From Minutocellus sp. GHC0000111 (taxonomy: Eukaryota): a stretch of DNA of 64,000 bases. Numbering within the stretch: the first letter of the stretch is position 1; the number at the start of each line of letters is the position of its first letter. The stretch is from assembly GCA_977018835.1 (NCBI GenBank), contig OZ361257.1, positions 186,001 to 250,000 of the forward strand. Reading direction: 5' to 3'. Below the pieces are notes generated by a model. It did not search any database, was not told the DNA's origin, and worked only from the letters and a program-made list of their open reading frames with translations. Shown piece after piece: positions 7,232-58,727 of this stretch. A program made the position numbers and the translations under genes.

Positions 7232-10200
7232 TCAAATATCTGTCATGCGGCATCTGAGAGCTATGGACATAGATTGTAGCTCCTGGAAGAGAAGCTTGCA
7301 CGCGTATGGAAGGCGAATATCGGCAACCTTTTCGCCAGATCGACAGTATTGGCACCAATTCTGATACTGTAACAAGCCACAGGTTAGACATACATTCGCG
7401 CTGAAAGCATCTGATGAATGCATTAGGCGTTCCATGATTAAATTGCTCGCTCCGTAGGCAATGAGACAATCTCGCTCCATCTCTCCAAGACGCAATCCCC
7501 ATCGCGAGATCTACCTTCGGTAGGCTGCCGGGTGAGGACGGCCCGGGGTCCTCTTGCCCGAGCATGCATCTTATCTAGCACCATATGCTTCAACTTTTGA
7601 TAAAAAACAGGACCAGAAAATATGTATGCATCAAGAAGCTCCCCACTCGTTCCACTGTACAAGACATCCTTTCCAGTGTAGTTTATTCCATGCCGAATTA
7701 GAGCTTCCGACGCAAGACCGGGCAAGTCGGCTGATCCAAACTCTTCTCCAAACGCCGATGCATAGGCCTGACGTCCTTCATAGACTCCTGCTTTTCCAAC
7801 GAGTAGCTCTATCAATTTTCCTACGGTCATTCTGGAAGGAAATCCATGAGGATTCATAATCAAATCGGGGGGGTTGCCATTCTCGTTGAAAGGTAGATCT
7901 GTCTGAGGAACAATGAGCCCACAAACACCTTTTTGGCCGTGACGAGAGGCAAATTTGTCGCCGATCTCAGGCCTGCGAACCTGCCTCAGCATCACTTTGA
8001 TCAAGAATTGTTCGTTTTCATTTGATGTGATCAGGACCTTCTCTACGTGGGACGGTGCTCCGTTTCTATAGGATAGGCCAGAGTACTTGTAACTGATAGC
8101 ACTGATGTTCACTCCATTTCCATGCAAACCGTAATCGATACCACCGACTGAAGCCGACGTATCAGTGGGCGATTCTTTATTGACCATCACTGAACCACCA
8201 GAGACCTTTTCTCCGACAAGACAAATGCCGTCTTCGTCAATTGGCTTGAATTTGGCAAAACGTTTGTCCTTTTCACCATCAGGAAAGGCACTAGCATCAG
8301 GAGGACCGCACGTTCTATCTTGTGTTCCGTTGGCGTATCGTCTAACGCTTGTCTGGTGCTTCCGTAAAACAGCACAACGTCCAAATCCCCGATCTATTGA
8401 CGCCTTGTTCAAGATTACAGCGTCTTCGATATCATATCCGCTGTAAGACATTACGGCAATACAGGCGTTTTGACCACCGGGTATGTTATCGAAATTGATA
8501 AGATCAAGGGTTCGAGTTTTCACCATTGGTTTCATTGGATAAATCATGGTATAAATCAATCCGTCCATCCTCGCATACTGATTCATGGATATTGCACCAA
8601 TGGCCTGCTTTCCCATAGCTGATTGGTAAGTGTTCCTTGGCGATTGGTTGTGGTGGGGGTATGGAATGAGACCTGAAACTACACCTAGAAGAGTCAGTGG
8701 ATCAATCTCAAGATGTGTGTACATCATCTTCCTAGCCACAGCAGTTGCAGCCCCGGAAATCGAATCAAAAGCATACAAATCCAAATCTTTCTCGGTCACA
8801 GCAATGAAACAATTGTTCTCTTCATTAACATCAACGTACGCTACGACACCTTGACGGAGCAGGTCACAAACATTGATAGCTCCTGAAACAAGCCCCTCCA
8901 GATGGAATTGCCTCAATTTTGGTCGCCCCGTCTGCTCGTCATCAATTCACAAAGGACGACAAACTCGACCCCCATCAGTTGCTATGTGGACTGCTTTTTG
9001 ACCTTCGTGCAGATATACAGAAACAAATTCTCCAGCATGACCCTGCCGCCGCATCGTGCGGAGCATCTTTACCAAACAGTGAGGTTTGGTATGTGCCCCT
9101 ATGATAAGACCATTCAAGAGAACCAAAAAGGTACTATCAGAGTTGATCTCATTGCCAGATAGCATGTTCACATCTTCAACTCCAAGATCTCGACAAAGTC
9201 TCTCTATTGGCTCCGTATCCTCATCGGTAGTAATGTGGGCAAGGAGAGCTAGATTCTTGACGAGCCCACATGCCTCGCCCTCGGGTGTGTCTGCTGGACA
9301 GAGCATGCCCCACTGACTTGGTTGGAGGGATCTTGGTCCTGACACCTTGCGAGTTTTCTCGAACTGACTATTTACTCTCGTCATCATACCCAAGGCCGAA
9401 ACGTATGATAATCTGGACAAAACCTGAGTTACACCAGCCCGGTCCATTCGAAAACGCTTCAGCACCCAATTTCCAGTGGATATTGCAGTGACCATACCGT
9501 TGGTTATTGTATCGGGCCGGATGGTTTTGACAACATCAAATGCTTGAGCTCGGTTTGGTTTGGACAGGACCATGTCTGCCTGTCGCTTCAGATCTTTGTT
9601 GAATAGCTTGAAGAGGTCCTCAAAAAGTAAGGAAAGGAGACTCCCAGCCAGCTCCAAACGCATATTCCCATAGTAGTCTTTCTCATCAAGCGGGGCCTTA
9701 CCCAGGTGGGCCATAATCACTCGGCGTACAATGTGGCCGATGTAAACACATTTCGCTCGAGAGTTAAAATTGACAACAGGAACATGGCTCAGCACAACAT
9801 TAGCCAAAACATCTCGAGCTTCATCTTCTATAGAAGATGGTTTGCGGAACCAAGCGCCGGCGCCTCCCTTCACCCCTACTGCCTGGCCTCCGAGACTTAT
9901 TCTACCGCGAATCTTTGTGCCAATGAAACGCAATGCTTGCATTTGAGTGGAGATACCCAAGCGACAGGGCTCCTCCATGGAAAGGGCCAAAGCATCGACA
10001 ATTTCCGGTTCTGAACCAACAAGGTGAACTACTTCCATGTCGGACTCAACTCCCATTGCCTTCAGGATGACTGCAATGGGTATGTCTTCACCAAGAGTAT
10101 TGCTCCTCATGTACACCTTCCCCCCCTTGACTAGAATGTATGCCTTAGACTTGCGCTCATGAGTAGAAGAGGTGATGGATGCAACTACGCAGCCCTTACC

Positions 10201-11231
10201 ATCCTCTTCGAGAATCACTCGATTCTTGGAGAGCTGCTCTTGGACGAGAATCACCTTTTCCACTCCCTTGATAATAAAGTACCCGCCAGGATCGTAAGGG
10301 CACTCACCCATCGCTGCCAGCTGCCGCTCCGTCTTTCCGGATAACAGACATTTTGACGACCCAAGCATGAGAGGTATTCTACCAACAGGGACCTTCCTCT
10401 TCATCACAATCTGTCGTCCACGAGTATATCGGATGTTGACGTAAATTGGAGCGGAATAAGTGCAATCTCTCAGCCGGCACTGAGACGGTGTTGCCTGAGT
10501 CGAAGCATACGAATCCTCGTCAACCGATGGTTCTCCGACCCAGCAGTCCGTGTAGCGAAGATAAAACTTGGGATCATGTTCACTGCGAATCTCACAGGCA
10601 GACGGAGACTTGGTGGGAAAGAAAAAAAACGTGCGAATTTTTGTGAGCATAAACATAGAGCGAAATGACATGATTGGTGTGCATGCACCTTGCGGTTCGT
10701 CTACAGAAACCACAGCGACAAGCATGATGTGACCTGCTAGCTTGGTGAAAAGCATCGACAAACTCAAATCAAATCAAATTTAACAACAACCCTTACCTGG
10801 ACAATTTGCTTCATCTCAACGTTGACGAAGTAGTCAAAACTATCAATGTGCTGCTTCATCAGGCCTCTTAGCTTGAGAAAGTGAGGCAGCAGCCTCCATT
10901 TGTCCTTGAGCGATCCCACAGGCATGTCAAGAGGCGGAGGAGTGCCCTGGTGCGGCCCTTCTCCTGAGACTTCGCCATTACCTGGAAATCTAGAAGCGAC
11001 AGCGGGATTCGTCGAGAGATGATGTGAGGGTGGTGATGGTGCCTTCTTTCTGTCGATCCTGCTAAGATCCAATGGGCCACAATTTCTCGCTGCAACGCCT
11101 CTGCTGCTTTCACCAGGGAAATTATTGTCAGTTGCACAACTCTTCACATTACTTTCGAACCGATCAATATCTTCAATGAGAGTCGATCCGTGTATCTTCC
11201 CAAAGCCCTCGGTCGGAAATGAAGACTTCAT
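7232..11231 (-). pseudogene. RPC2: RNA polymerase III second-largest subunit (RPC2/POLR3B), disrupted as assembled
   Basis: Motifs: [67 protein letters not shown] and [17 protein letters not shown]. Intron at 10609-10796 (GTAAGG..AAG). In-frame TGA at 8947-8949 (CRPL*ID) and a frameshift at ~7497 in RSRDGGLRLGEM. Conserved GNKRL reads GNMRL. Confidence 0.92.
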
Positions 11232-11339
11232 CCGAGAAAGAAACAGGCGATCGTGCCGAAAAAGGAAATCAAACTGGAGGATGTCTGCTCCTCGGAGGTA
11301 GTGATTTCGATGGCTGGTGGTCTTTGGTCTGGCCGTCGT

Positions 11340-15528: not shown

Positions 15529-15559
<31 letters not shown>

Positions 15560-15890: not shown

Positions 15891-17587
15891 TCCTGCTGCT
15901 GACAGGATGAGTAACGCACCAACCATGACTTCCGTTGGTGGCATTTCGGTCAGAAATCTTTGACCGATATTGTCAAGGGCATTCGAGCGACGAAACGTGA
16001 TACTGGTATCTTCATATCTGCTTGTATAGCCGAGATCAAAACTGAGATAAGCTCGACGGATCCGAGGTAAAGGTTACCGCCCTTCAAAAGCTGACATTTC
16101 TTCAGATGATGGGATACGATATGTCGTTCGCATCCTTCGCGACAATCGAGGTGATGTCGAATGTACGCTTCGCGCACAAGAGGGTCGGATACCTTGCAGC
16201 GAGCCAGGGCTTCAGCCAAAACACCGAGGTGGTCCTCCTTACAACGAACCTTTTGAAGGAGGAGCTCCGAGGCGCTGTCGGCGGGGGGATGTCAGGGGTT
16301 TACGAAGCTGGATTGGCTGTCAACTGTCTTTCCAATATTGTGACGGAAGATCTTGCACGGGAGCTCCTTCCAGACCTTTCGAACCTTCTGTCCCACCCAC
16401 AGCAGTACATTCGAAAGAAAGCAGTATTGTGTATGTTCAAGTTGTTTGTCAAGTACCCGCAGGGATTGCGATTGACCTTTTCTCACATCCAGCAGTGTTT
16501 AGAGGATAGCAACCCATCTGTTGTTTCATGCGCTGTTAATGTTATTACCGAACTCTCCGATAAGAACCCGAAGAACTATCTTCCCCTTGCCCCCTCCTTC
16601 TTTAATTTGTTGACATCATCGAGTAACAACTGGATGCTTATCAAGGTAGTGAAACTTCTAGGGTCATTGGTCGCCGAGGAACCTCGCCTTGCCCGGAAAC
16701 TACTAGATCCATTATCCCAGATCGTGAAGACTACACAAGCCAAGTCTCTCCTCTATGAAGCTGTCTATACCATTACGTTGTGCCTTCCGTATTGTCGAAA
16801 AGCAGATGGTTCCATGCCTGCGTCCGTGCCAGAAATTGTTGAGCTGTGCGCGAAGACGCTTCGTTCCTTTGTCGGTGATGCGGACCAAAATCTTAAGTAT
16901 CTTGGCTTGGTGGGATTTGCCGGTCTGATGTCATCCCACCCTAAAGTCTTGTCTGCACCTGATTATCGGCCGTTGATCCTTACATGCCTCTCGGACGATG
17001 ACATTACAATTCGCAGTAGATCACTGGACCTCCTCGGAGGTATGGCAACTCGGAAAAATTTGATTGAACTTGTCAATCAACTGCTAAAGCACGTAGATCA
17101 GGCTGTTGGGTCGTACAAAAACGACCTCGTTGAAAAGATCATCGAGATATGTTCGGCCGAGAAATACGCACACCTGCAAGATTTTTCATGGTACCTTGAT
17201 GTTCTGGTCTATTTTGGCCACACAATGGGGATCGAGCGCAGCGGTCAAATTGTTGCGAGGCAAATTGTTGATGTTACGTTGAGGGTGTTGCCCGTGCGAG
17301 AGCACTCTGTACAAAAAATGATGGAGGTTCTTGACAGAGCTCTTAGGTTGCGGAATCGTTACGGAAGATGAGAAAATGTTCTTGGGGCATCCAGGGAAAA
17401 TCCCGGTAATCTTCACGAGAGTTGTGGCTTTGTCCTTCCGGATGTTTTACTTGCAGCAGCGTGGATTGTCGGGGAATATTCGTCCTTGATTCCTGCTGCC
17501 GTGGGGTCTACAGTGTCGGGATAAATGGATATCCTTATAGATCTAGATGTGCAAGGACTGTACATGTAATGGAAAGGTATATGTAGA

Positions 17588-18492
17588 TCTAGCTAGATGT
17601 TTATATTCACATGAGACGTACCTACAAGGTGTAAATAGGAACTTCTGTATGTACGGTATAAAAGCACGGACTACAAGAAGAATCACTTTTCTTCCAATGA
17701 TCAGAGCTTGCTTGCAATGAGTGAATTGTTTGGCGAGAACGATGGTATGTACGGGTCCCATCATTCGCAGGATGATAGTTGTACCATTGGAGAACACAAT
17801 CATATGCGGCGAATCGATGGGGACACCCGACGACGAGCATGATCATTTCTACCAAGAAGGCGGTGTCATCGTCGTCCAAATCTTGCAGCAGAGTACAACA
17901 ATTTATTTGGAGCCCTGGAATGAGTGAATTGTTTGGCGAGAACGATGGTATGTACGGGTCCCATCTTTCGCAGGATGATAGTTGTACCATTGGAGAACAC
18001 AATCACATGCGGCGAATCGATGGGGACACCCGACGACGAGCATGATAATTTCTGCAAGAAGGAGGTGTCATCGTCGTCCAAATCTTGCAGCAGAGTGCAA
18101 CAATTTACTTGGAGCCCTGGAATGAGTGAATTGTTTGGCGAGAACGATGGTATGTACGGGTCCCATCATTCGCAGGATGATAGTTGTACCATTGGAGAAC
18201 ACAATCACATGCGGCGAATCGATGGGGACACCCGACGACGAGCATGATAATTTCTGCCAAGAAGGCGGTGTCATCGTCGTCCAAATCTTGCAGCAGAGTA
18301 CAACAATTTATTTGGAGCCCTGGAATGAGAGAATTGTTTGGCGAGAACGATGGTATGTACGGGTCCCATCTTTTGCAGGATGATAGTTGTACCATTAGAG
18401 AACACAATCACATGCGGCGAATCGATGGGGACACCCGACGACGAGCATGATAATTTCTTCTTGGCAGTATCATCGTCGTCCAAATCTTGCAG
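17588..18492 (-). repeat. 203-bp tandem array (~3.8 units) plus tail, inside AP3D1
   Basis: Reverse complement of the unit and tail seen at 20-2117. Confidence 0.95.
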
Positions 18493-18684
18493 AGGAATAC
18501 GACGTTGGGATGCAGGCTTCATGGAAGTGAGCACGAGAGTACCACAGCTGCTTTTTAGCAATGATTATGTTCGTGGCTTTAAGCCTCTTAAGACAATTGC
18601 GCATCCGCACACCGATAGCCTTCGGAGAATTGCCAGAGCGGCGCTGGCAGCAGGAGAACAGACAATTGCACCGTTCGAGGCAGC

Positions 18685-19084
18685 TCAAAGGCAAACATAG
18701 CACATCAAAACTGTGTTGGTTTTGTCTTCAGGCACGTTGAGAGGACAAAATACATAACAATAGAATGCAATGGTGGCACCCACACAAATGTTGATGTCCA
18801 TGTCAACCTTGCTTCGTTGGGATTCAAAACACCGACATAGATCTACATGTAGCATCACCAGAGTTGCCGTTCTCCTCATTTCCTGAGATCTACCTACCGG
18901 TACCTAGGCATGGCACTTGACACATCAAGCACACAAAGCATAAGGCTTAGCCCAGACAACCGATGTTAGGAGTTGGCAAATGTGAGCAATTTTAAGACCT
19001 ATTGCCAGAGTCTTACTTGGTTATGTAGATCTAGGTGAGCATGGACTGTAAATCTATTGACATTTTATGTAGATCTGGCTCCTT
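18685..19084 (-). repeat. Inverted copy of the 6247-6659 repeat
   Basis: Direct sequence comparison. It differs by substitutions and by TA-module insertions. Confidence 0.9.
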
Positions 19085-20041
19085 TCCATTGAAATAACTC
19101 TGTGCCAACATGTGTGTGTACTAGACTAGATTTACAATACATGTGCATGCTGTCTCTGCATCGTCATTGCAGCTCAAAAGTGACTCAGGACCACTATTCG
19201 AAGATGACAGTCCACTGAAAGTTACTGAGACTAGGTCTAACGATCCCTTTTATCTAGATGTAGATGCAAATTCGGGAAGTTCTACTGGTGCTACTCTGGT
19301 TCATCAATCAGGTAAGTTTGGATCTATTCAGCTAACTGACAGCAATGAAGAATCCGGAACGCGAAGAAAGAAGAAAAGGGAAAGAAAGAGAAAAGAAAAG
19401 AAGAAAAGAAATTCGTCGATCCTTCCACAGTCGGGAGTACTCGGATCTACCTCGGAGTTTTCGCAAGCTGCTATGGGAAAGTGTACTGGACAACATTTCA
19501 CAGTTTATAGGAGCGACGACGACGACGATGAGGAGGAGGAGGAGAGAATGTTGACAAAGATGCCAGGCGACAAGGAATTTGAGGGTCTCCGTAAAATTGA
19601 TCTTTCAGCTGCTACCGCCACAGTCGAAGAGGAGAAAGAAGTCTCACCAACTCCTGTACTGCCAAACGATTTCCCAGAAAGAATTGATGCTGCAAAAGTT
19701 AAAAAAACAGGTAAAAAGAAAGGGGGCGACAGAGAGAAGTCGAAGAAGAAGAAGAAGAAACCCAAAAAGAAATCGAAGGACCACAGACTCAATTATGGTG
19801 ACACGATGGATTTATTGGACCTCGGCGGAGGCCCTTAGTAAGTAAGGTTTTAGGATTATGGTTTTTCAAATCCAGCTACGTATTCAGCTACGTATTATAG
19901 TAGATAATATTCAGCTACGTAGTAGATAAGAATGCCATTTTTTCCTAGTACACTTATGCACATGATTGCGAAATGGTGTTACATGTAATTTTTAATTGAT
20001 GACCGTCCTGCGTGCAGCATGATGTGCTTTTGCAGCTCTCA

Positions 20042-23000
20042 TCATCTTGGAGGCATGGCATCTGGTTGAGTGAAGGAAAAGCCCTGGGCAGTTGTGGGCC
20101 TGGACTGATTCTGCGATGAAGCCCTTTGGTACGATTCCATGTTGGGATTGCTTGTTCCGCCATCTCCAAGGGCCATCTCGCCCCATACGTCAAGACCAGA
20201 CATGCTCTGTGCTCGAGTTACAACTGCTCCACCATCACCGACACCGACGGCAGGTGTAGCGATGGAATTTGGCTGAATAATCATTTCATCCCCAGTATTC
20301 GAATTGACAAGATCAGCAATAGCATCGGTGCTGCTGGATCCACTGCCTTGGTCAGGTGAAATGCCAACACGAGATAGAAGGAGCTCTTGCTTTTGGACCA
20401 ATTTCTTCAGCTCGGCCACTTGCTCAATGAGATCTTCATTAGCTTCGGTGTGACCACCGGCCTCTTGCGTTCTTCGGGCATACCTCAATATGTCGCTAAC
20501 GACAACATCGCTAGATAATGCATTGTGATACAGGAGCCAAGTTTGCACGTAGTGGGGTATTTGCAGTGCGGCCAGAACGAAAAGAGGAATAAAAATAATG
20601 TGACCGCAAACAACATCATGCACGAAGTAAAAAATCTTGACAAACGTATGTCCGAAGCAAAGACCAACCAGGCAGAATGCTCCAACGCCATAGTAAGCTG
20701 CAAGAGCATATCAAATGCAGTTGGTATCTTCGATGAAAACGGTGATGATTCCGGCAATCAAACCAACAAAAAGGACGATGCCAACAGTTCTTCGTATTGG
20801 GTAAGCCATCGAACGCTCCGTTAGGGCATAAACGCGGACAAGAATCAGGAGGAGGGCAATGAAAATGAGGACTCTGCCAACGCTAACGAGAGGCTTGTTG
20901 AGAGTGGTGTCAGACTGGAACAGATCCGACCTTCTGATGCCCTCAGCAATGAGAATGTAGAGGAGAGATTTGATCAAATTAGGTACTTTTGAAGTAAAAG
21001 GCATCGTCTTGTAGTATGCATTTTCCTCGGTCCACCACATTGACCAGCTCTTGAGCGATCCACCTGTCGAACCATGCATCCAGGAGAGCCATTTTTCGTA
21101 GTCAGAATAAACTACGTTCCATTCGAAAGTTAGTGGATTGAACCAGAATGGACTAGCCAAGAAAGACAAAGACGCAAGCCAAAGCGACCAGGTACGCCCG
21201 AAGTACTGACCCGCGTCTGTGTAGATACCCATTAAGATGAGAGCAGCTGAAACATCAACACCGAGATAAAGGTGGCTGCTGGCGAAGAAGCGGAATTGTT
21301 CGTCCATAGGTGTGTGCTGCGTAACAAAGCCACGACCTGTGGCACGATACTTGGCTCCACCTACTAGGATCGTCTGAGCCATGTAATAGGCCTTCGTCTG
21401 AATGTGGAACATGAAATGCAAAGGACCGCCGGTGATGAAGACATGTATGATCTCCCTAAGACTTGGCCACCATCCTCTTTCTACACCCAGAGTGGCAAAG
21501 AGAGGGATGGTCTGCAGTAGGCCCAGTCCTCCTAAGAGCATTTGGATGGTGCCCATGGGTGTGATTACTCTGTCGCCAATCTTTTCCAAGTCAAAGAGGG
21601 CTAGAACTGCCATCAAGTAGACAACAACATAGATCGTTAGAACTGTGAGGACATTCGAGAAGTAGTGACCTATTCCGCCATAGTAGAGAGACAAAAGGCG
21701 GAAGAAATCAAGTCGATGGCAGATGCGGTAACCATCCCTGGAAAGACTCTGTTCTCCAGCGCCCTGGCTGAGCTTCGCTTCAAATTTGTAGATTTGGCTC
21801 ATGCCAACATCGCGCCCTTTGCCAACCTGAACATATTCCTTGAACCCAACAGTTCCGCCTCTGATGACGCAATTGTATCCGGCAAAAATATCTTCCGAGA
21901 GATTTATGCCCTTGGAACTCTTGCTAATCCCTCCCCTGGTAATGAAGAAGAGCTTATCGAACACGTCCGGATGGCCATAATGGAGACGAATACGAAGGGG
22001 TCTAGCGAGGACTCGTTGTCCGAGAGTAACGAAGGAAGTTTCTTGAAGAGCCATGTAATTGGACAAAGAACTGACACTACCAGTAAAGATGTGCTCTCGT
22101 AGACCTAATATCGTTGTAGGAAGAGGACCGTCTCTCTTTGCAAATTCTTGCAGTGCATTTCTCATCTTGAGAGCCTCTTCGAAGTACCCTTCCTGGTTCA
22201 TATCAATTGTTTGAATGAACTCTCCACGTGTGAAGATCATGGCATGGTTCTGGTTCTCAGGTTTGCCCTCTCCAATGACGGGATTGCCCGGGAGACGAAC
22301 GCGGTAGACCTCTTGAATACTGCCTCGTCCATCACTCTTGACCAAAACGGAGTAAAAGAGGGAGGCGCCAGATCTATTCAAGCGAATGGTGTCGATATAG
22401 GCAACACGCATGTGAGGGAAGCGGTGCATTAGCTGTTCAATGTCGTCTGCCTTTGGATCTTGATTTTTCTTCATGTTTCCGTAGACCTGACAAGAGACGA
22501 TGTAGCCGAATTTCTCTCCCATTAAGTCATTGGTTGTGTCCTCATCTAGACGTTCCAGATTTGCGAGAAGACGAAGGGCCTTCTCAAAATACATCATACC
22601 GCTGACTGTTCGCGTTAAAGTCTGCGCTCGAAGGCTTGCCCAAACACGTGTCTCGTTGATGAACTTCTTTGAATAGATCACCTCCTCATCTTTGATGCAA
22701 TTCCTTTCGAGGAAATTGTCCCAGTCAGCTCGGAACAGAGTTTGCAGGTAGAGAATCGTCAACACACCGAGGGCATCGGTTCTCTTCTCGAGGTCTGCCT
22801 TGGTGTACGTGACATCTTCGGAGTAGTATGGGGTCATAACATTCCATGAAAACATATCATGAATTGATGGAGCATCTGGCATGTCCATGAATAGGGAGTT
22901 AACGAAGAAAGTCAACCTGCGGCGAACTTCTTTTGATTTGGGCTCCGCATCGTCCGGATGGCAAGCAAACAAACCGTGCACCTTCGTTAGAACCTCCTTG

Positions 23001-40749: not shown

Positions 40750-41026
40750 AGAAAGACCCCGCGCAAAAGCAAAAAATTCAATTGAAAAGAATGTGCTAAG
40801 GAGGAAAAGTGTGTGTTTTTACTGTGCCGAATCGATTGGGGTGGAAAATAAAGGCCATAGCTTTTTTGCTGAATTATGCAACTCTAGATCTATGCTAGAT
40901 CTAGCTCGGTGATACATGTACTGCCCAGCTAGTCCTACATGAAAGTTTCTAGCTAGGCCTAGCTATGTAGGTTGCACCGAGCGAGCTAGATCTAGTACAT
41001 ACCGGTACACATACATGTACCAGCTA

Positions 41027-46099: not shown

Positions 46100-47469
46100 A
46101 GAAAGATGTCGATGCCATCTCCTGCGTAATTATTATTATCTTTGTCGACGTTCTTTCTTTCCTTGCCCTCTTTTGGGCCGCACTCCCTCAACCTCCGTTA
46201 TTGCCCTCCTTCTACCTCCGCGCTCACTTCGGATTGGCCTTTCCCTCTTCGCGTCATTCATCATCGCCAACCAATTCTTTTAAATTTTGAGACGCCATCG
46301 TGATTCACCTTTCACTGCATCGGACCAGCTTGGGCCAAGAATCGAAAGGCGAAGCTGAGCTTCCTTCCGAAGATATGAAGTAAAAGTTCCTACATCCATC
46401 CAAAAATTGTCGTCAGTGCTAGAGCGAAAAGTATCACTCGATCCTTTTTTGGAGGCACTCACTCTTTTCGTTTCCCCGAGCTCGATTCCTATGTTCCCTC
46501 CACTACCCGGGAGTTGTCTCAATTGTGGCCGGCGCTTTGATCCATCTTTAGTTACTCGTTGTAACTTGGCTGATTTTCGAATAAAATCAATCTCGGGGCT
46601 TTTCGAAAGCACAATCCAATTCTTTGGAATACCTCCCTTTGGTTTTTGCAATCCTGACTTGACAATTTTTTCTACTGCAATGCTACGAAGCTATTGTATG
46701 TCAGACCAGCGATATCCGAGTTCAATTAGAGCGTCAACTTCGATTGTCTTGTGACGGCCGCGTTGATCCACAAATCTCAACATAGCGATGCCTTCTGGAT
46801 TCATTTCATCATTTGCGGGAAAAAAGCTCTACTCTTATTTTTTGAGAAAGAAACACGGAAGGTCCTTTCTCCACAAAATTCTTCAGAATTGTCGTCAGTA
46901 CCATGTCTTCTTTCGTCAGTTCTTCTTGAATCCTCCCCCGCTATCGAGGTAAATCGAGATGCTCCATGAATCGTGCTGTTCGCAGAGGTCTTGAGCATTT
47001 CGTTTGGTCCGGAACATAAAGAATTTAATCCTTCATCGGAAGTGATGGTATCGTCATCTTCTTTTTCTACGTAGACGCTTTCAAATTTACCATTTGCTTT
47101 CTTCCTGTCATCTATACTTTCTACACCAAAAATGTCTGACATGATCATGGCATACCAATCCTCATCAGACTCTTGGGCTTTCCTGTAAGCGTCTTCAATG
47201 AGAATGTCGTCGATAACATTGCTGTGGTCCACAATATCCAAAAAATGTTGTTCCGAATTATTGTTCACACTGCCAAGGCGCCAAAATAACATCCCTCCGC
47301 CAAAGATAGTATTTCTCCCAATCGAGCGAGTGTGAAGGGCATGCCTCAACGGAACCCGAGGCACAGATAGAGAAACCACATGATTATTTCCTAATAAAAT
47401 AACAAGCAGAAGAAATCCAAAAGGGAAAAGAAAACCCCTCATGTGATGCTGTGCACGATTCATCATCAT
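46100..47469 (-). pseudogene. Protein of unknown function with an N-terminal signal-like segment, disrupted
   Basis: Hydrophobic N-terminus. Frameshift before ~46820, in-frame TAG at 46691-46693 (LGYRWSDIQ*LRS...KPKGGIPKNW) and in-frame TAA at 46280-46282 (ESRWRLKI*KNWL). The 3' end is approximate. Confidence 0.6.
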
Positions 47470-48654: not shown

Positions 48655-50323
48655 TCAACAATTGAACATTCTCTTGAACGCTTCGTAAAAACAGAAAAAC
48701 AACGAATTCGCAGGAACTTTGTGCATCAGCCGAGGGAAACTCCCTCTAAGAAATGCTGCAGAGCCGCCCTCAATGTATGTCTCCCTGGCACAATTAAAAT
48801 GCTCCCTTCGTACAATTCTGGCTGTGTTTGTAACCTCTTTTGACATTTTGTAATGAAAAAGTGGGAACAAAGCAGAGAAGGTAGGTGTAGATTCAGAAGG
48901 ATTAAGTGAATCCGAAGTTCACATTTGTATGTATGCATCGCCGATATCCGCTATTGTAAGTGCAATTCCTGCAAAAATACACACAAACCCACTTACCGTC
49001 TTGACTAAAGGTGACGAGGGGGGGGGTTCATTTTGAAAGATTTTGTAGGAAAGGTTGGTAGCGAATGAGCAAAGGAGCACTTTTAGTTGGAAACAAAAAT
49101 TGGCAAAACTTTCGCTCTGGAATAAAGTACATTTGCAGAAAGGAAGAAAAACTCACCTACGTCCATTGGATTTGTGAGGAAAGAGCCGACCCCACCAGCA
49201 ATTGCTCCGGAAGCCATGTCTTTCCAGCCCTGATGCTGGAGCTGCGATTTCTCAGTCCATTTTTCTTGAATAGCTTCATATGTGAGTAGTGTCATGATTG
49301 CATCTACAAGAAAATTCGTGCACGCATGTGGGTGGTGGGTCGAAGCGCATTTCATGAGAACACAAAAAATAAACAAAGATAAGGAAAGTCTAGTCATGGC
49401 AACTTACAAGGAATATCTCGAACCATTTGGATGGAAACACCGCCCAGTGGGAAAAATGCCCGCATTCCCTTTGATCGAAACATTGCTGTAAGAGCTTTTC
49501 TCGTGTTTGGGTATTGTCCTGTCTGCAGTTGTTGCTTGACAACTTCATAGGGTACCCGAGAAAATGAGGCAAACGTATTTCCGATTGCTGCAGACGCAGC
49601 TATTCCAATTCTCCTCGCAGCATTGTCAGACATAACGAAGCTCTTCCCCCGTGTTGGTCCAACTGCTTGCCTCAAGCGTGGAGTAATGATCCGTTTGCTG
49701 TAAGAGTATATTCCAAAGTACAATCCCACACTGGGCATTGCGCCGATGGCCGCAACGCCAAGGCCAGCCTTATGAAAGTGTGTGCGCATGAGAAAAAATA
49801 ATAACAAAAAATTCATGATTGAGCATTTGGAAGAGATAGTTTTGAACAAGTGAAACTCAAGGATATGCAAGAAGCCATTGCTGGCTCTTGAAATGGGAAT
49901 CGTCAGACGTCGACACTTACATAAAGTTCAAATATTCCTTTTGGTCTACTTACAACCAACGCAGCGGCGTCGACAAAGCTTAGTCCCTTGCCCCCCATCC
50001 CCTGTCGAGCCTGTTGCTGCACTGTCTTGATTGTGTCGAAAGGTGCCAAAATTGTCTTTGAACATGCCGCAGCTAAGCCCGACGCTAAGCTATTCCTAAA
50101 ACCTTCTGAGGCGGCAGACGCCAAAGAGTTTTTTTGGACGACCTCCTCCGCGACATGCATCTGGCAACAACAACAATGATTGCTGCTGCCTTCGGACCGC
50201 AGGACGTGCTGGAATATCTGCTGCTGTTGTTGATGGTGGTTGAATTTGCAGTGTTTTGCAAGCAGACACTCGCATCGCCTGGAGCAGCCATAACAGAAAA
50301 ACTATTTCGAGGCATTCAATCAT
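48655..50323 (-). pseudogene. Mitochondrial carrier family (SLC25, SAM-carrier-like) protein, multi-exon, frameshifted as assembled
   Basis: Three carrier signatures: PFDTIKT, PYEVVKQ and PMDVVKTRLQ (the last built with an 8-nt exon at 48997-49004). C-terminal PRLMHKVPANSLFFCFYE. Frameshift at ~48795 and probably another in exon 1. Confidence 0.8.
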
Positions 50324-50545: not shown

Positions 50546-53500
50546 CTAGCTCATGGCGCAGGAGAAAAACAGAGGAAAACCGGGTGTTTTGGTCGAGTGC
50601 GAAAAAGCTCCTCTGACGAACGTCTCTCATTCGCAACAACTCCAAAAGAATTTGCCGCCATAAAATCAACATCAGCTCTTTGATAAGAATCGTCTCGAGC
50701 GAGTATTTTTTAATATTACTGCTGCACCAAAATCCACGTATTGCAACAATAGACCGAGCGCATCATAACAGAGAAAAAACTGCCGAAGAAATCGCCGCAG
50801 CATATCTTTTGATCTCGCCAAACATTGATGACACCCTCGTTGGGCACTTTCATCGTCCTATTGCTCTTATTGACATCCTTCACAAGCACTGGCGCTTCCC
50901 GAACTCTCTCCGTTTCTAGCACTTTCATCCTTGACTTGAACGAAAAAACAGCAAAAGAAAGAAGCTCGCTCGTTGGGGAGAAAAGGAGGAACGAGAACCC
51001 CACCGACTGGTGGGTGTCACCGTCGGTCGTAATTGTGCGCGGATTTGCGCTACCGACACTTGCATTCATGCCCAGACCTCCGTACACCGAGCAAGGTTCC
51101 TGTCGATGGAATCAATATCATTACGGCGGGAACAATGAAGATATGTGTATAGCCTGCAAACTCCATTCAGCAATGGGCGATACGACGCTCAGAACGAAGG
51201 TGAAGGATGGAACAGAAAAAATTATTTGTGTCTGCATGTGTATGCGTCATGATATGCCAGAGGATCAGTGGGAGGAACAGCACAGCATGCGAATTGAATA
51301 TGCCAATCAAGAAGAGGAAGAGCAAAAGAATTCACGATCCGATCGGGCGGTGGCGAAGCGCTACGTCCCCGGCGAATCTGAGACGGCAGCGGCCGATTCT
51401 ATCACAGAGGTTCGCAATTGGACGACGAGGCATTTGCGAAGTGCCAATTCCGAGATGACCGATCGAGCAGCCATCGCCCATCTTGCAAGGAAGGGTGGTC
51501 ACAACGGTGCTATCAACATCAGTAGAGGTGGAACCTCTCGTCGGTCTCGACAGAAGATGGCGGATACGGCAAGTGCAGCTTTTGCAGGGCTCAGTAAGGC
51601 TGTATCGCCGACCGACCCTGAATTTGGAATGGCGGTTGCTATTGCTGGCAATGTCGTTCGAAAGGGTACAGTGAAGAGATCGTTGGAAAGTACAGTGGTC
51701 GATTCCGAGAAGAGGGTTCGGCCAACTGCGCAGCACCGAGAAGAAATGGCAAATGCAACTGCTACAAAGGAGGTTGCTTTGCGCATAGCTGCAGATGCAG
51801 CGAAGCTTGCGAAGAATCAGAAGCAGAAGCAGAAGGACGATGCTCTGCTGCTGGAGATGGGACCGGTCCTCCGTGACCACGTAAAGAAGATAAGGAAGCC
51901 CAGCCTCCGGAGGCATTTTATTGCTGCTTTCTGCAAAAAGTACAGCCAATCATGCATTGAGAGGGTGGTGGGCATCAAGATACCTAGCGACGAGTGGAAT
52001 AACATCAGGAAACATCAGCGGAGCCCCGGCGCATTCAAAATTCTAACCAGATCGAAGCCAATAATAAGCAGAGCAAGGATCCCAGAGAGTATCATCAAGA
52101 AGTTGCTGTATTTATTGGAGCAGCCGATGAATCTGCAGAAGCATGCTTTTGGGTCGAAGCTACTTGCCATATGTGATGGCATGAAGTCGGTTGAACTCGC
52201 GGCAGTGGCACGAGCCAAGCCAATGCTGGACCTCGTCAAATCATTCATAATGGCACTAGATTCTGAAGCGGGCTGTAAGTGCACCGTCCCCGACGAAGAT
52301 CGTTGTACCAAGCTCGAGGACAACACTATGCGCCGATGCATGAAGACGGCTGGCCACGGCGGCAAGCATAAGTACACGACCAAGGGATCTATTTGTGCGC
52401 GAACGGTCGAGGATTTGGTTGGAACATTGACAACAGATGAGATTCGAAGGTTTACTGGACTTGACGATATCAAAATTTTGAAGGGGAACGATAATTTCAA
52501 ACGCATGAGGGAGTTGACGGAGAAACTGTTCTTTGCTCTTGACAACGAGACCCAGCTCGAGAAGGCCGAGATCCTGATGAATATCGACGAGGTCGAGCTC
52601 TTTCATTCGACAGACTTTTGTCCCCACCTCGACCGAAACGGTACCCACAAATGCAATTGTTTGACTTGTGGATTTGAGCAAGATGGATCTGATATTCATT
52701 GCGACCACAAGGAGGATCATCTCAACCCTTGTACGAATTGTGCTCTCGGCTATTCGATTGTTCGGCGCCTCGAGGCGAAGCTTGAAGCTGTGAAGGGGGC
52801 ACTATTTCCAACCGATAGGGATCGTTTTGAGTATGAGGAGGCCAAGGATCCCATCATCAACTGTAGAATTGACTTGGACGAATACCGAAGCCATTTGGCC
52901 CGTCTTTGGAGCGAAGCTGGAGAGGATGTGCCGGATTTGAATCATCTCTGGGAGGTCAATGGATGCATGGTGCGTTGTGACTACAAGATGAGAATACTGG
53001 CTTGCTACTTTCGGGAGAATCAGCTCAAGTGGTACGCAAAGCGCGGGATCACATGCCTTAGCTTTATGATTATATCTAAAGCTAAGGATGGCGATCCGGA
53101 TCGGCGCTTTGACTGCACTTATGTAATTTTTCTTACAAACGACACTCTGCAAGACGAATGGGAGGTATTGTGCGCAAAGAAGGAGGTCTATGAGAATCAT
53201 GTACCGCCCGATTGCAAGGTTGTTTGGTTTCGGACTGATGGAGCAGGCTGCTTTCGTAACGTCCTCGCCCGTGCAGCTCAAAGGATGTGGTCTAAATGGA
53301 CGGTCCGTGGAATTGTAGAGGAGAGGTATCGAATAGATCCTGCCGGCGGCGGCCACACTACTCTTGATGCTATGTTTGGCGTTCTTGCGAGAGTTTTGCA
53401 TAGAGGTGCTGACCGAGGCAACTCCTACGTGTTCGTAGATGAAGCAGTAGTTGCAGCCGAGTCTGGAGGAGGGATGGCAGCTACGACCTTTGCATCTTTC

Positions 53501-54512
53501 AATCCAGATCGAACCCGTCGTCTTTGGGCCAAGCTCACTGCTCCCAACAAGTCTCTTGACAGCGTCCTTCTTACCGTTCTGAACAAAGAGAATGGATCTA
53601 TTGTCGGCTACAAGCACTCTGGATACGGGCAGGGAGTGCAGTACAAGGCATCCAACTTCTCTTGGTACAACAAGCAGCCGATAATGACGGGTAGGAATAA
53701 AACCAACCCCATCGATGTCGAATCGGCCCAGCCTCCACGATGCCTCGACCTCAAGTATGGATCCGACGAGAAGAAAGCAATCAAAAGCTACGCCGAAACC
53801 GAAGGACAAGGGCCTCAATCCGCCAATAACATTCGCAAGCGCATGATACCAGCAGATCTCGTCGTTCCCAACCATCCTGATAACGCCGATGCCGCTGCAG
53901 ATCCTGAACAGCAAGGCATCGATCTGCATGAGGATCCAATGAATGAATCTGATGGAGAAGCATCCGACAACGAAGATTGAAAATTGTTTGGCTGGATGAA
54001 TGCACACATCTTGTGTAGCTATACATAGTTAGAGCATCTTAGAGTAAGACATGTGCTTTAGTACGATATCTACTTTGTAGATCTACACGTCTGGCTACAT
54101 AGTCTTGTGTGTGTTCCTTGTTTTATCGGTCTAATAGTTGGCATCAGCCAATTCATTGTCGACGAGGACCAGCAGTCCCTTGCTTTCTCGCGTTAAGATA
54201 TTTTTTTTAAAGCTCGCAAGAAAGCAACACTTCTGCGTGCATTTCTTTGCGAGGTCAAAAATGTTTTAAAAACTATTTTTGGCAAAATCCAAAGTAGAGA
54301 TCGAGCGGAAGATACCGAAAACATGATGTGCAGTTTTCGACGCAGAATTCAAAAGTGTACCAATCTTTGCCTCGAGGAAGGGGACACATCAGCTTGTATC
54401 GAGCGATGAAGTTTGGTGCAGTTTTGAATCCTCGTGCCGACGCAGGGCTACTTTGACGGGCGTGCTGTTTTGACCGGAAAATGCTCTGTTTTTCTCGTGC
54501 GTCATCAGCTAG
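50546..54512 (+). mobile_element. TIR DNA transposon, Sola3-like (tentative), ~3.97 kb
   Basis: Left end TACTAGCTCATGGCGCAGGAGAAAAACAGAG versus reverse complement of the right end TACTAGCTGATGACGCACGAGAAAAACAGAG (3 mismatches). The TSD is TA or CTAG, ambiguous because the junction is palindromic. Confidence 0.85.
50825..53980 (+). CDS. Putative DDD transposase (Sola3-like) with Cys/His-rich region; uninterrupted ORF
   Basis: CDYKMRILACYFRENQLKWYAKRGI, FRTDGAGCF and PAGGGHTTLDAMFG resemble the DWAMK..YRESQ..WFGKRG / SDNAGCY / GKG..D pattern I associate with Sola3. It lies between TIRs. The true start may be MPRPPY at ~51068. Confidence 0.65.
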   Translation: MMTPSLGTFIVLLLLLTSFTSTGASRTLSVSSTFILDLNEKTAKERSSLVGEKRRNENPTDWWVSPSVVIVRGFALPTLAFMPRPPYTEQGSCRWNQYHYGGNNEDMCIACKLHSAMGDTTLRTKVKDGTEKIICVCMCMRHDMPEDQWEEQHSMRIEYANQEEEEQKNSRSDRAVAKRYVPGESETAAADSITEVRNWTTRHLRSANSEMTDRAAIAHLARKGGHNGAINISRGGTSRRSRQKMADTASAAFAGLSKAVSPTDPEFGMAVAIAGNVVRKGTVKRSLESTVVDSEKRVRPTAQHREEMANATATKEVALRIAADAAKLAKNQKQKQKDDALLLEMGPVLRDHVKKIRKPSLRRHFIAAFCKKYSQSCIERVVGIKIPSDEWNNIRKHQRSPGAFKILTRSKPIISRARIPESIIKKLLYLLEQPMNLQKHAFGSKLLAICDGMKSVELAAVARAKPMLDLVKSFIMALDSEAGCKCTVPDEDRCTKLEDNTMRRCMKTAGHGGKHKYTTKGSICARTVEDLVGTLTTDEIRRFTGLDDIKILKGNDNFKRMRELTEKLFFALDNETQLEKAEILMNIDEVELFHSTDFCPHLDRNGTHKCNCLTCGFEQDGSDIHCDHKEDHLNPCTNCALGYSIVRRLEAKLEAVKGALFPTDRDRFEYEEAKDPIINCRIDLDEYRSHLARLWSEAGEDVPDLNHLWEVNGCMVRCDYKMRILACYFRENQLKWYAKRGITCLSFMIISKAKDGDPDRRFDCTYVIFLTNDTLQDEWEVLCAKKEVYENHVPPDCKVVWFRTDGAGCFRNVLARAAQRMWSKWTVRGIVEERYRIDPAGGGHTTLDAMFGVLARVLHRGADRGNSYVFVDEAVVAAESGGGMAATTFASFNPDRTRRLWAKLTAPNKSLDSVLLTVLNKENGSIVGYKHSGYGQGVQYKASNFSWYNKQPIMTGRNKTNPIDVESAQPPRCLDLKYGSDEKKAIKSYAETEGQGPQSANNIRKRMIPADLVVPNHPDNADAAADPEQQGIDLHEDPMNESDGEASDNED

Positions 54513-54677: not shown

Positions 54678-57600
54678 ATGACGGCGCAGAGCAGCAATGA
54701 GAAAACGGTAAAAGCTCAGAGTCAGATCGAAAGAGCGCAGCGTCGAAGAGAGGATGCTGTGCGTCGTTTAGTGATCGATGTGACCAGATTGCCCTCCACG
54801 CACCCAGCGGCAAATGCTGCGAGTGACATTCTCAAGCCTAGTCTTGATGAAACCAGTAACTGCAATGGAACAATTCACCCACTCCTTGAAAACAGTAGGG
54901 CTGGCGATGTTCCAACTGCATCACAAGCGTCAGTTTCTGGAATCGGTGCATTTACCAAACTGCCAGAAGATTCTCTCTTGACGAGCGCCGTGGCCGTCTC
55001 AATTGAACGTGGTGTTGATCGTGAACTTCACAACGAGTTGGTCCGCCAGGCCAGGGAATCTGCTGGTGTAATATCAAAGATTTGTCACGACCACTCAGAT
55101 GCTTTCCTTGGGAGTGTCGGAAGAGTTGTAGCACTAGGTGGCCCCTGTGGCGAGCTTCGTGGGAAAATTGAGGAGGTACGTGCGGGAGGCGAGGATGAAG
55201 TCTTTAGCGACTTCATTTTCGTTCATGTCTGGACAAAAACTATACTTTTCACTGTTACTCATCTGCTACCTCAAAAATTGTCATCAATTCTACTAGGCGA
55301 ACAAGGAAATTCTTTCTAATACTGGCGGTGCTATGCTCGACTCAGCATCTCGTTTGGAGGCATCGAGAAACGCGGATGCAAGAGCACGAACAATGCACGG
55401 GATGGTCACCGCATGCCGCCGGGTTGCTGTCCTGTTAGAGAGAAGCCGACGTCAGGCAGCGTTGAGCAGGCCAAAAGCCAGTTTAGATGCGGTTGACGAG
55501 GCTCGGACATGCTTGACCGCTCCTATCAGTAGTCTACCTAGGTACTCTTTGTGCCAGGAGGTCTTGATAATTTGGTCAACGTAGCTGCATACAACACAAT
55601 CCTGGCCAGAGAGGCGGCGCGGAGTAGGGGCAGTTTCGGCAACACGGATAGTGCTCTCAACCATGGTTCTGGGCCAGACAGAATTGACGCCGCAAGCATT
55701 GGAGCGAAAGGCGAAGACGGAGGAAACAGGATTGGCGATGTTGGAGGTTTCATTGGCGGTCCTCATGGACCTTCTCCTTCAGAGCTTTGTCTCGAGGAGA
55801 CTCCGTTCGGGTCGCGGGCTATGGAAATGCTACCAAAAATAGAAAACGAAGTCCTTCTGGGTGCACGGAGAGGTCTGAATCGTTGGTTCCTCTCAATACG
55901 GTCAGGAGGGGATGGATCCAAGGCAGGAAGGGCTGCTCTCCGTAGGTGTGCTCATTCTATGGCAGTGGGCCCCGGCCTGTTGGGTTTGGGCGGTCGCATT
56001 CAAAGTTACAGCTGGAGAGCAAAAAACGCGGACAATCTCATTTCTCGGGCGGGGCAGGGAGGCAGGGTTGCAAGGGCAGCTCGTTACGGATATTTGTTCG
56101 AACGGGACTGTAAAAAAGAAGTAGAACGAATCGAAGGAAGAAGCGTTGTTGGTGTAGAACGTCGAGCCGAGGCGTTTGTGTCAGCCTTCGGTTGGTATCG
56201 CTGTTGGGATGAGAGTGTTGAACTTGATGTTGAAATTGATCTTTTCCTTGCCCGAGCTGGTGAAAACGACTCGGAGACACCAGGAGGAACAAGCCACGGC
56301 ACAAAGACTCTTGGATTTCGGGCGGGGGCTGCTGCAGGGCAAGCCAGCTCTAGGGATCTTCTTGGGCGTCAGTCGACACGGCTAACGTCATCCAGTTGGG
56401 GGAGTGTTCTGACCCCTTCAATTTTCTTTGAGGACTCTCCCACGAGGTAATGAAAAATCGTCTATTTGGCTAACGAAATGAGGTATTTGATGTTTTTGGT
56501 TTGGCACGCATTGTTTGCCGTTGCACTAACTTGGTTCCTTGCTTTACACTGTCTTTGCTTTTTGGGTCAGAGAGGAAGACGAAGAAAAACTTGTTTCTTT
56601 GCCTGAGGCGGTGCACCCAGTTCGCAGGGCAGAGGCCGCGTTTGCCTTATTGGGGAGGATTGACGAGTTTCGGTCGTATTATGAGCAAAATCGTTTCGGT
56701 GACATGAGAATTGGTTCAGCTGAGAGCAAGAGTGATGGCGAGGGTGATAAGAATGAAGTGAGGAGTTATCTTTCTTCTCTCACAGGAGATGATGTAAGTC
56801 TCGGCACTGACCGAATCTTCTTTGCGAAGAGCATGCCTCACCTATGTGCAAGTGTGGTTGGGTTCAGTGCTGTAGAGGCAGCGCTTGAGCTCGGGAATGT
56901 CAGTGACGAGCCAGATCAGGAGAACACGGACTCTTTCACCGCTAGGTCTCAGACTGAAGGTCCCAGTGGAGAAAAGGACTCGTCTGAGAATGAGCTTGTC
57001 AACCAACCCACCCCTCCTGCGAGCAGTGCCTCTGCATCGTTTCGCGAAGGCTCAGCTAGGTATGAGCGCTCCTTGATCAACGAACTTGGAATCATCCTAC
57101 GGAGCCGTGCAATTGGAGCGACATTGGCTGAGCTTGCCCGCAGCTCGGCATTGATGACCTCCTTCCGATCGGCTCTAAACGTTGTCCATCCTAGTTCAGC
57201 CACACGCCGCTCCGACAAGGAGTTGCTTGCCATGGATGTGGATATCATAATGACTGGCCTTAAGGTGGCACAAGAAGAGCAGCTGAAAGCCACCAACAAG
57301 ATGGTGTGTGATGACAAGAAAGAAGCCATGAGGGTCCCAAGTGGTCAAGAATTTCGAACTGCTGATCAACAGCCGTCCAGGGAGGAAGCCGAGGTAAAGA
57401 ACTATCCCTTCGGTCTTCACAAGTTGAAGCAGAAGCCATTGGTAGATGCTTCTCTGGAGATCGACCGAGGCAGTTTGCACTACATGCATGCTGCGCAGGA
57501 AGAGAGATTCACATTTTCAAGCTCTGTTCCATTTGTGGTTCGATCCATCCATGCTCGGACCATCACGTTCGCCTTCTTTGCAATGTGCCAGGAAGAGCTT

Positions 57601-58727
57601 GGGCAGGTATTTGCTTTCAAGAAGGGTGGTGGAATAGCAGGCTATGTCCTAGATTGTGTAGCAGTTGCGGCAGTAGGAATGAAGGAAGGATGCCAACACC
57701 TTGATGAGCTCACTGTTGAGCAAGCCGTTCAGATTATTGCCAACATCTCTGCCCCCTCCAGTCGACTTTACCCCGCCTCTTTGGAATTATCATGCGAGGT
57801 CTATGCCATGTTGGCATGGTCAGGGGTGATCATCTGGAAGACACGTTTCAATATGCTGACTCTACATTACGCGGAGCAGACAAATCGTGCGACCAGGAGA
57901 TTGGTGCCATGTACAGTCTGGTGTATGAGATTTGTCGAAACAAGATAGACATGCTTGTGAACTTTTCCTTGGAAAATTTTCAATGGGTGAGCAAATCAAC
58001 AAGAGACACGCCCAATGCCTATTGCGAGAGCTTGATAGAGTACATGAGAAACACATTCCGAAGTCTTGCTCCAATGGACGAGGGATCAAGAGCAGGCCTT
58101 CATTTCTCATGTTGTGGACACATAGCCGAGAGGCTAGTGAAGTTGCTAACTGAGAAAGCAAAGCCTTCAAAGGATGACGGTGAAAGTAGCCAGCATGGAC
58201 CTCCATCAAATGAGAAGGAGGAAGGAGGCCTACTTCCCATCAATAAAATTGATGCGTTTGGGCTGAAGAACTTGTCTGTTGATGTCGCTGAGTTCATGTC
58301 CTTTGCTGACGGAACAGGCATCCCGCAGCTTGGAGAGTGTTTCAACAAACTCAAATGTCTAGTTGACATTATGCTTGACCGTGATCTGCCCATGTTGCTT
58401 CTGCCTGACAATGAATCTGTCCGCCGGAGAAAGTACCCTTTTGCTACACTGGACAAAGTGCTCAGCATACTTGAGAAGTATTCTGGAATGGGATTAAGCG
58501 ATAAGTTGATGGGATCATCAGGGAAGAGCTTAAGCATGTAAGATGATCATGCTGTTTGTGTGTGTGTGTGTGTGCATTTGTGTTGCCTTGCCCTTTCTTT
58601 TATGTTTCCATCTCTGACTACATGGTTCAACACTTCTGTGTTTGTCACGACCTATCACTGTAGATTGATGCTGGAAAAAAAGGAGGTAGCACATTTGACT
58701 CGGCTTGTGCGACTACAGTTGGGTTGA
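54678..58727 (+). pseudogene. SEC15: Exocyst subunit Sec15/EXOC6, disrupted as assembled
   Basis: Motifs [54 protein letters not shown] and [14 protein letters not shown]. Introns at ~55176-55297, ~56447-56570 and ~58538-58663. Frameshift from an 8-nt insertion at 55537-55544 and a C-run frameshift at ~57752. Confidence 0.8.

Follow-up and report, generated by a model that had tools for sequence, protein, structure and literature searches.

A decaying haplotype with broken core genes beside an intact allele in a diatom, probably sheltered in a clonal lineage

The window, a 64,000-nucleotide stretch of the Minutocellus sp. GHC0000111 assembly, raises a simple question: how does a diatom, here one of the Cymatosiraceae, live with broken versions of neighbouring core genes, a subunit of RNA polymerase III among them? 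The original prediction had called seven genes broken. All seven were confirmed against intact relatives, with 16 lesions over the 10 genes of the window, and they lie in a stretch of 50 kb. The window was picked for its many broken genes. An exact-sequence look-up of 10 window ORFs gave no match for any of them.

The gene for the second subunit of Pol III, RPC2 (7232..11231, reverse strand, intron 10609-10796), scored 1247 bits to human RPC2 and 658 to RPB2. As predicted, it has a stop (TGA 8947-8949), a frameshift (-1 at 7496-7499) and the change GNKRL>GNMRL (K>M at 9662), and five replacements fall at otherwise invariant columns. The AP-3 delta adaptin gene AP3D1 (15907..19838, forward strand), compared with intact relatives, carries -1 frameshifts at 15944 and 16064 and a TGA at 17369-17371. 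These had been foreseen, whereas the supposed insertion proved to be a replacement. A 1.6-kb repeat-rich segment (17520..19148, no strand assigned) with 3.9 copies of a 203-bp tandem family stands in for coding sequence, and about 270 codons (residues about 540-808 of a 1034-aa relative) are gone. Its right junction at 19148 comes from run comparison and its left edge was judged by eye.

The 1,3-beta-glucan synthase gene (BGS; 20042..27020, reverse strand, 5' end approximate) contains a TGA at 24773-24775, another at 20711-20713 and a 14-bp deletion at 26431, in line with the two stops and probable frameshift first read there. RNA gaps across its 5' part were left out of the evidence. The GT77-type glycosyltransferase gene (PF03407; 27375..29379, forward strand) was rightly called intact, since splicing at RNA junctions leaves an open 577-codon frame. 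Glutamate synthase (GOGAT; 29464..34922, reverse strand) was recognised by its Pfam domains and is putatively ferredoxin-type, a label taken from the original prediction. It has a +1 at 31418 and an in-frame 12-bp deletion at 31992.

On the right-hand side, a conserved gene of unknown function (46136..47469, reverse strand), with four full-length intact relatives of 392-429 aa, has the predicted frameshift (near 46820), TAG (46691-46693) and TAA (46280-46282). The mitochondrial-carrier-family gene (48655..50323, reverse strand), whose relatives are named SLC25A26-like, lost two bases in an A-run at 50129-50135. SEC15/EXOC6 (54678..58727, forward strand) has an 8-bp insertion at 55537-55544 that duplicates a TA, a +2 in a C-run at 57752-57756 and an in-frame 12-bp deletion after 57654. 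The one and two frameshifts expected in these last two genes were thus found. Four frames had been described as uninterrupted, one of them as Sola-like. This held for the helicase-associated (HA) domain gene (39589..40749), a LINE-like ORF of 1397 codons (40996..45189) and a DUF7869/transposase-like ORF of 1055 codons (50813..53980), and in Psb27 (60049..61100, 3' end approximate) for the main exon, where we saw no lesion; all four lie on the forward strand. The LINE-like ORF has an FVDD motif and a weak, sub-threshold zf-RVT Pfam match (E 0.004), and its LINE label is in part our assumption. The DUF7869-like ORF had a match score of 0.91-0.93, and its recognition fell slightly below the tool's 2300 mark. 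Both ORFs are likely younger insertions.

Independent data came from runs X1 and X4 (DNA, study P1), X3 (DNA, study P2) and X6 and X10 (RNA, two studies). All of them are collapsed contigs, mosaics of both alleles that lose rarer variants and from which neither copy number nor expression level can be read. Several runs containing the sequence are labelled sponge metagenome. About half of the window words are present in runs X13-X18, which likely represent a close relative.

The independent contigs were compared over about 20 kb of the window, and seven of the 16 lesions lie inside the compared stretches. Four of these were found at depth 146-153, which bears out the original view that indel error alone does not explain the lesions. 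The RPC2 stop and frameshift lie together in one X1 contig spanning the gene (depth 146), and the BGS stop at 24773 and 14-bp deletion in one 12-kb X4 contig (depth 153; five other letters, one gap letter). The RPC2 stop is present in two studies, and X3 has both stop alleles (depth 5.82 and 5.56). A fifth lesion, the AP3D1 replacement, has indirect support: the corresponding segment of the other allele occurs in X4 at about half depth and in RNA run X10. An X4 piece matches the window across the junction, with just 18 letters of its left side inside the compared stretch; this is below our 31-letter rule, and the piece was excluded as direct support. The last two, the BGS stop at 20711-20713 (in none of four runs) and the GOGAT frameshift (absent in X1, X4 and X10), are missing from the covering runs; they may be private to the assembly, or errors. 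The predicted GOGAT frameshift is therefore present in the window and absent from those runs, which share the 12-bp deletion at 31992 in the case of X4. At seven of 52 covered SNP sites the window letter occurred in no run, and part of the window-specific differences may likewise be private or erroneous. A 2-bp deletion at 7867 seen only in X3, and other X3-private deletions of 1-2 bp, all fall in homopolymers and were therefore not counted as lesions.

If these genes are broken, functional copies must exist elsewhere, as was originally argued, and they do. Two studies have RNA runs (X6, X10) that contain an intact allele about 0.45% from the window allele, and two intact, near-identical carrier proteins were found, the spliced P0364, and P0365 on a 5,175,589-bp contig. 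Silent divergence of the two alleles is about 0.6%. Data were available for six genes (RPC2, AP3D1, BGS, GT77, GOGAT and the carrier), and in each of them the non-window form was the one transcribed, though the RNA samples' own DNA may lack the window haplotype. This includes GT77, for which X10 has the other allele at five of five exon-1 sites (four replacement, one silent) though the window frame is open.

In the DNA runs both letters were found at 42 of 52 listed RNA-different sites, the variants listed for the AP3D1-to-GOGAT part being 40 of 81 substitutions and 12 of 20 indels. The split was 27 window to 23 other letters in X1 and 27 to 22 in X4. As far as contigs can tell, both haplotypes stand at about 1:1 in all three DNA-type runs compared, and the same two haplotypes are common to X1 and X4 (P1) and X3 (P2). 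Pieces unique to the other allele have depths of 86.5 and 80.2, against 153-200. At depth 146-200 each allele prevails at about half of the sites, which led us to reject an unequal dose (AAB or ABB). Summed RPC2 depth was 146 and 145, against 156 and 142 in the same runs for the contig of a paralogous polymerase subunit, contig depth not being copy number. Its motifs suggest that this paralogue is RPA2.

Derived changes are spread unevenly over the two alleles. With L001, a syntenic intact relative, as the polarisation reference, 24 replacement and 3 silent changes were derived on the window allele and 4 and 6 on the other (Fisher p 0.005), and the 24:4 skew of replacements onto the window allele has a binomial p of 0.0002. 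Compared between the copies, as the original prediction had proposed, dN/dS was 1.0-1.2 for the window allele (CI 0.5-2.6, wide) and 0.17-0.20 for the intact allele, one of whose four derived replacements falls on a nearly invariant RPC2 glycine. Lesion density fits a single uniform rate of 0.57 per kb over the 10 genes (chi-square p 0.18), and therefore three intact genes are expected.

We thus observed lesions, an intact allele, about equal dose and a one-sided excess of replacements. The window is probably the broken one of two haplotypes at about 1:1, decaying sheltered in a permanently heterozygous, non-recombining and presumably clonal lineage. A permanently heterozygous, non-recombining haplotype was one of three candidates raised originally, and it fits best. 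Such a clonal lineage would never lose either copy, which likely shields the broken one from selection and lets it decay. Selection would have ceased to act on the window haplotype as one block, through silencing or a structural lock, around when the copies split. We estimate that this split happened around 6 million generations ago, and that the window copy would have evolved neutrally since about then, with stops, indels and transposons accumulating at the neutral rate. The region would be left functionally haploid and the cells dependent on a single copy of RPC2, BGS and AP3D1. Mitotic recombination occurs 4.2 times per 100 divisions in another diatom (10.1101/2020.11.08.373134), so a window-type haplotype should be erased unless recombination is suppressed. 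A rearrangement, or lethals elsewhere on the other copy, may block such purging. More tentatively, a host-associated diatom might be discarding one silenced homologous chromosome or set while remaining 1:1 heterozygous, an asexual diploid some six million generations on its way to a functional haploid, with interhomolog recombination off.

Alternatively, a clonal diploid could lose alleles at random gene by gene, so that the window holds the losers and the other haplotype is broken at other genes. No silencing step is required, and lethals in repulsion would account for the persistence of both haplotypes. From the lesion rate we estimate that such loss would put dN/dS near 1 in the loser and at about 0.2 in the survivor, and the survivor's observed value agrees. 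The other allele also bears private insertions, near 27080-27234; the 4.7-kb gap between RPC2 and AP3D1 in the window, about 0.5 kb in L001, may reflect repeat gain on the broken copy. However, the non-window form was the transcribed one in six of six genes, and the likelihood favours block-wise over random-phase loss by about 40:1, before ascertainment. We consider gene-by-gene loss unlikely.

A doubled genome or chromosome (AABB), in which the window would be a homeolog within a redundant, decaying sub-genome, is improbable. Neutral evolution from the split onward is the pattern of a copy born redundant, AB and AABB would be indistinguishable by depth if everything were doubled, and two contigs are involved, one of 5.18 Mb with the intact carrier and one of 3.03 Mb with the window's proteins. 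Yet listed sites never have more than two letters and run-private variants are few (in collapsed contigs), the 0.45% divergence is of allelic scale, and one-sided loss would still need a reason.

More improbable still is a Y-like mating-type region in which homozygotes expose the intact haplotype to purging while the window haplotype is never homozygous. One-sided decay would then follow without silencing; a repeat-rich, rearranged primordial region of this kind is known in Pseudo-nitzschia multistriata (PMC13398520), and heterothally in one polar centric (PMC5676960). However, all three DNA runs have both haplotypes at about 1:1, against the ~25% that a sexual population would give, fungal mating-type strata stand at a dN/dS of 0.55 between alleles, the Pseudo-nitzschia counterpart is gene-poor, and we recognised no sex-determining candidate within the window.

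Error in the long-read consensus is refuted as the main cause and very improbable. Several frameshifts lie in homopolymers, where the X3-private deletions show how such noise looks, and two lesions are missing from the covering runs, but four of seven recur at high depth, one of them a homopolymer deletion, two studies share the RPC2 stop, and errors would not produce a 24:4 skew common to other samples. The least probable explanation, a pseudogenised segmental duplicate next to a homozygous intact locus, which was another of the original candidates, would suit the two contigs of 5.18 and 3.03 Mb but is disfavoured by a summed RPC2 depth like that of the single paralogous contig, not double, as far as contig depth, which is not copy number, can say.

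A phased block that leaves core genes such as a Pol III subunit with a single working copy, and that recurs in separate studies, offers a natural experiment on the pace of decay in sheltered haplotypes, and on block-wise against gene-by-gene loss. Its persistence despite reportedly frequent mitotic recombination in diatoms suggests that recombination is locked, and such a lock can be mapped. Given the sponge-metagenome labels, the haplotype may also reveal how an algal nuclear genome changes when its bearer lives clonally in a host. Moreover, an assembly that chooses the window haplotype will falsely report essential genes as lost.

Sheltered haplotypes of Y/W strata, Microbotryum mating-type strata and supergenes share with the window fixed heterozygosity, replacements, stops and repeats. 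In Microbotryum, dN/dS between alleles is 0.55 (10.1101/2021.07.20.453045), whereas decay in the diatom is one-sided and near neutral at only ~0.6% silent divergence. Unlike Y/W and mating-type strata, the diatom was heterozygous in every DNA run compared, and its haplotype is known here without a link to sex. The asexual mite Platynothrus peltifer (Meselson-type divergence) also has two shared haplotypes, as the diatom has across samples of different studies. In the mite purifying selection remains effective, and 9% of allele pairs differ strongly in rate (PMC11758997), in contrast to seven of ten neighbouring genes broken on one side in the diatom. Phaeodactylum accessions and the Thalassiosira pseudonana L-clade are diploid clonal diatoms with shared heterozygous sites. 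Among the former, 902 genes carry loss-of-function alleles, and large gene families are over-represented in these losses (10.1101/176008), and the clone of the latter is marked by loss of heterozygosity (PMC6043606); the accessible parts of both accounts describe no phased block of broken core genes. The MRP3 region of Pseudo-nitzschia multistriata resembles the window as a diatom region with allelic differences in repeats, structure and expression, but it is gene-poor and built around one sex-determining gene (PMC13398520), while the window is gene-dense and carries housekeeping genes.

L001, a metagenome locus of a relative with intact genes, was used as the reference for the window. Its nucleotide identity is 81-85%, and its synteny takes in RPC2 (second subunit of Pol III), AP3D1 (AP-3 delta), BGS (1,3-beta-glucan synthase) and the end of a putatively ferredoxin-type glutamate synthase (GOGAT); the first three keep long open frames. 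The lesions of the original prediction were recovered almost throughout. Compared to L001, RPC2, which is essential, lacks one base at 7498 and has TGA for an Ile codon at 8947; its predicted K>M change is also carried by the DNA run X4, though X4 is intact at the stop. AP3D1 lacks one base at 15944 and at 16064 and has the predicted TGA at 17369. Its claimed insertion stood only in part: 1.6 kb of repeats is present, but residues ~540-808 are replaced by them. BGS has TGA for a Trp codon at 24773 and for an Arg codon at 20711-20713, and the suspected frameshift is a loss of 14 bases at 26431. In GOGAT, an extra base at 31418 leads to a stop at codon 1093, and without it 1690 codons are open. 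The two SEC15 (EXOC6) frameshifts are an 8-bp insertion with a duplicated TA and two extra bases in a C-run. The mitochondrial-carrier gene (48655..50323, minus strand) misses two bases in an A-run that near-identical intact proteins retain, and the conserved gene at 46136..47469 (minus strand) has the expected frameshift, with TAG at a Lys and TAA at a Tyr of four intact relatives. The total is 16 lesions in 10 genes, whose coding sequence adds up to about 28 kb by approximate lengths.

Functional copies had been proposed to exist elsewhere, and we found an intact allele in RNA of two studies. Contigs of the RNA runs X6 and X10 were open at all lesions they cover, those of RPC2 included (X6), and differed from the window by 0.48% in RPC2 (19/3930), 0.45% in BGS, 0.38% in GT77 and 0.43% in GOGAT. 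The transcribed form was the non-window allele in all six genes with data; GT77 is one of these, although its window frame is open. For the carrier, a 5,175,589-bp contig, of the same or another assembly, has an intact exon 1 (P0365). In this exon, a close relative (proteins P0363 and P0366) differs from P0365 at ~9/140 residues, some radically, and may have its own decaying carrier allele. DNA runs carry both letters at 42 of the 52 listed sites of RNA-window difference. The window letter stands in X1 at 27 sites and in X4 at 27, against 23 and 22 for the other letter; since both runs split about evenly, each allele winning half of the listed sites at this depth, an unequal dose was ruled out.

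Derived changes in RPC2 and BGS were polarised with L001. The window allele has 24 replacement and 3 silent changes, the other allele 4 and 6 (Fisher p 0.005), and 2 replacement and 5 silent changes have no assigned side. At 448 columns invariant across 17 relatives, the window differs at five and the four nearest relatives at none. The suggested dN/dS comparison, with silent changes split evenly, gave 1.0-1.2 (CI 0.5-2.6) for the window allele, 1.1 without run-unsupported sites, and 0.17-0.20 (CI 0.04-0.65) for the intact one. Three stops were observed and 1.2 expected. As replacement and silent changes are equally frequent per site on the window allele, release from selection likely came, within wide limits, about when the alleles split. 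With the Phaeodactylum rate of 4.77e-10 (PMC6604790), the silent divergence of ~0.003 per lineage corresponds to 5.7-6.6 million generations. A uniform rate of 0.57 lesions per kb fits the genes (p 0.18); at this rate GT77, HA and Psb27 would still be open with a chance of 38%, 52% and 73%. For the two long transposon-like ORFs the chance is 10% and 17%, which makes both probably younger. Both RPC2 alleles (7232-10608) share derived residues at well-conserved columns (e.g. codons 391, 397, 637, 656, 984), which may point to relaxed selection across the whole lineage.

The reading we lean towards is a clonal diploid in which one haplotype, sheltered and permanently heterozygous, was released from selection as a block. 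The window haplotype would be silenced, the lineage would be clonal and recombination between the two haplotypes would be suppressed. Loss gene by gene, which the derived replacements of the intact allele favour, keeps a small share of our belief; block-wise release is preferred to it by ~40:1, before allowing for choice of window. A doubled genome is improbable, though compatible with the equal summed depth of RPC2 and a paralogous subunit contig, by its motifs probably RPA2, in the same runs (146/156 and 145/142; contig depth is not copy number). Slightly less probable still is that the haplotype belongs to a Y-like mating-type region. For the sheltered haplotype, persistence is a puzzle because interhomolog recombination in Phaeodactylum is 4.2 per 100 divisions (10.1101/2020.11.08.373134). 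That the decay is chromosome-wide is possible but doubtful.

The decay itself is a real feature. Window 7150-11370 was compared with contigs of X1, X4 (DNA, one study), X3 (DNA, a separate study) and X6, and 19130-35050 with X1, X4, X3 and X10; the latter comparison took in 40 of 81 substitutions, the rest apparently being mostly intergenic or within GOGAT. Of the 16 lesions, seven fall inside these stretches: four are shared, the RPC2 stop and one BGS stop included, one is indirect and two are unseen, in line with the prediction that they are not pure indel error. One X1 contig across RPC2 (depth 146) has both stop and frameshift, and X3 has both forms of the stop site (depth 5.82 and 5.56). 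An X4 contig over 23059-35050 (depth 153) differs from the window by five letters and one gap letter (31418), so that the 14-bp deletion, the 24773 stop of BGS and a 12-bp in-frame deletion in GOGAT are all on it. In AP3D1, X1, X3, X4 and X10 all diverge from the window at 19148; the alternative X4 piece has depth 86.5 beside neighbours of 153-200, the value to expect of a segment missing from half of the chromosomes. None of X1, X4, X3 and X10 had the BGS stop at 20713; X1, X4 and X10 also lacked the GOGAT +1, at whose site an X3 contig begins, and at seven covered SNP sites no run had the window letter. These must be errors or else variants found only in the clone behind this assembly; X1 and X4 likewise show run-private variants. 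Sequencing or assembly error, which the two missing lesions would suit, is a very improbable source of the lesions as a whole, given those standing in X1 and X4 at depth 146-153. A segmental duplicate is the least credible reading, as the depth equality of RPC2 argues against an extra paralog (contig depth is not copy number).

Repeat comparison revealed a 203-bp tandem family in both orientations (18-1988, 6929-7060, 17716-18492, 47623-48328, 59103-59845). Its four arrays and one fragment, one array lying inside AP3D1, are 92-95% alike with flanks in common, and it is likely a mobile satellite-bearing element. Transposase-like frames at 2472-5401 (minus strand), interrupted by a stop at 3576-3578, had no Pfam support; their motifs presumably resemble a Tc1/mariner-type DDE enzyme, and this element could be the source of the TA-duplicating SEC15 footprint. 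A MITE-like element (12190-12910) has short internal direct and inverted repeats at both ends, and a possibly coding low-complexity repeat has two diverged copies (14780-15580, 38739-39190; 79-93% in matched parts). Self-complementary low-complexity tracts of TAGC, TACG and TCTAGA units (11380-11500, 15640-15800, 27100-27340, 50390-50480, 54510-54600) lie directly upstream of most genes. The other haplotype carries an insert private to it in the promoter gap between BGS and GT77 (27079-27234; X4 piece of 684 bp, depth 80). GT77 (27375-29379, between BGS and GOGAT) has no match in syntenic L001 15500-16800.

The window genes are diatom genes. Near relatives of the RPC2 protein are 95-97% identical and their cluster includes a protein named Minutocellus polymorphus (Cymatosiraceae), while that of one SEC15 relative includes Extubocellulus spinifer. 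A 3,030,164-bp contig on record encodes two window peptides. The RPC2 stretch, whole or in part, is present in 20 of the 24 runs listed, and four carry a sponge metagenome label, so a host association may exist.

Our literature search, with most subscription journals outside its coverage, returned no account of diatom core genes decaying on one haplotype only. The comparison was made with 10.1101/176008, PMC13398520, PMC6043606, 10.1101/2021.07.20.453045, PMC5676960 and PMC11758997. In the way it works, the window haplotype resembles a young Y or supergene haplotype.
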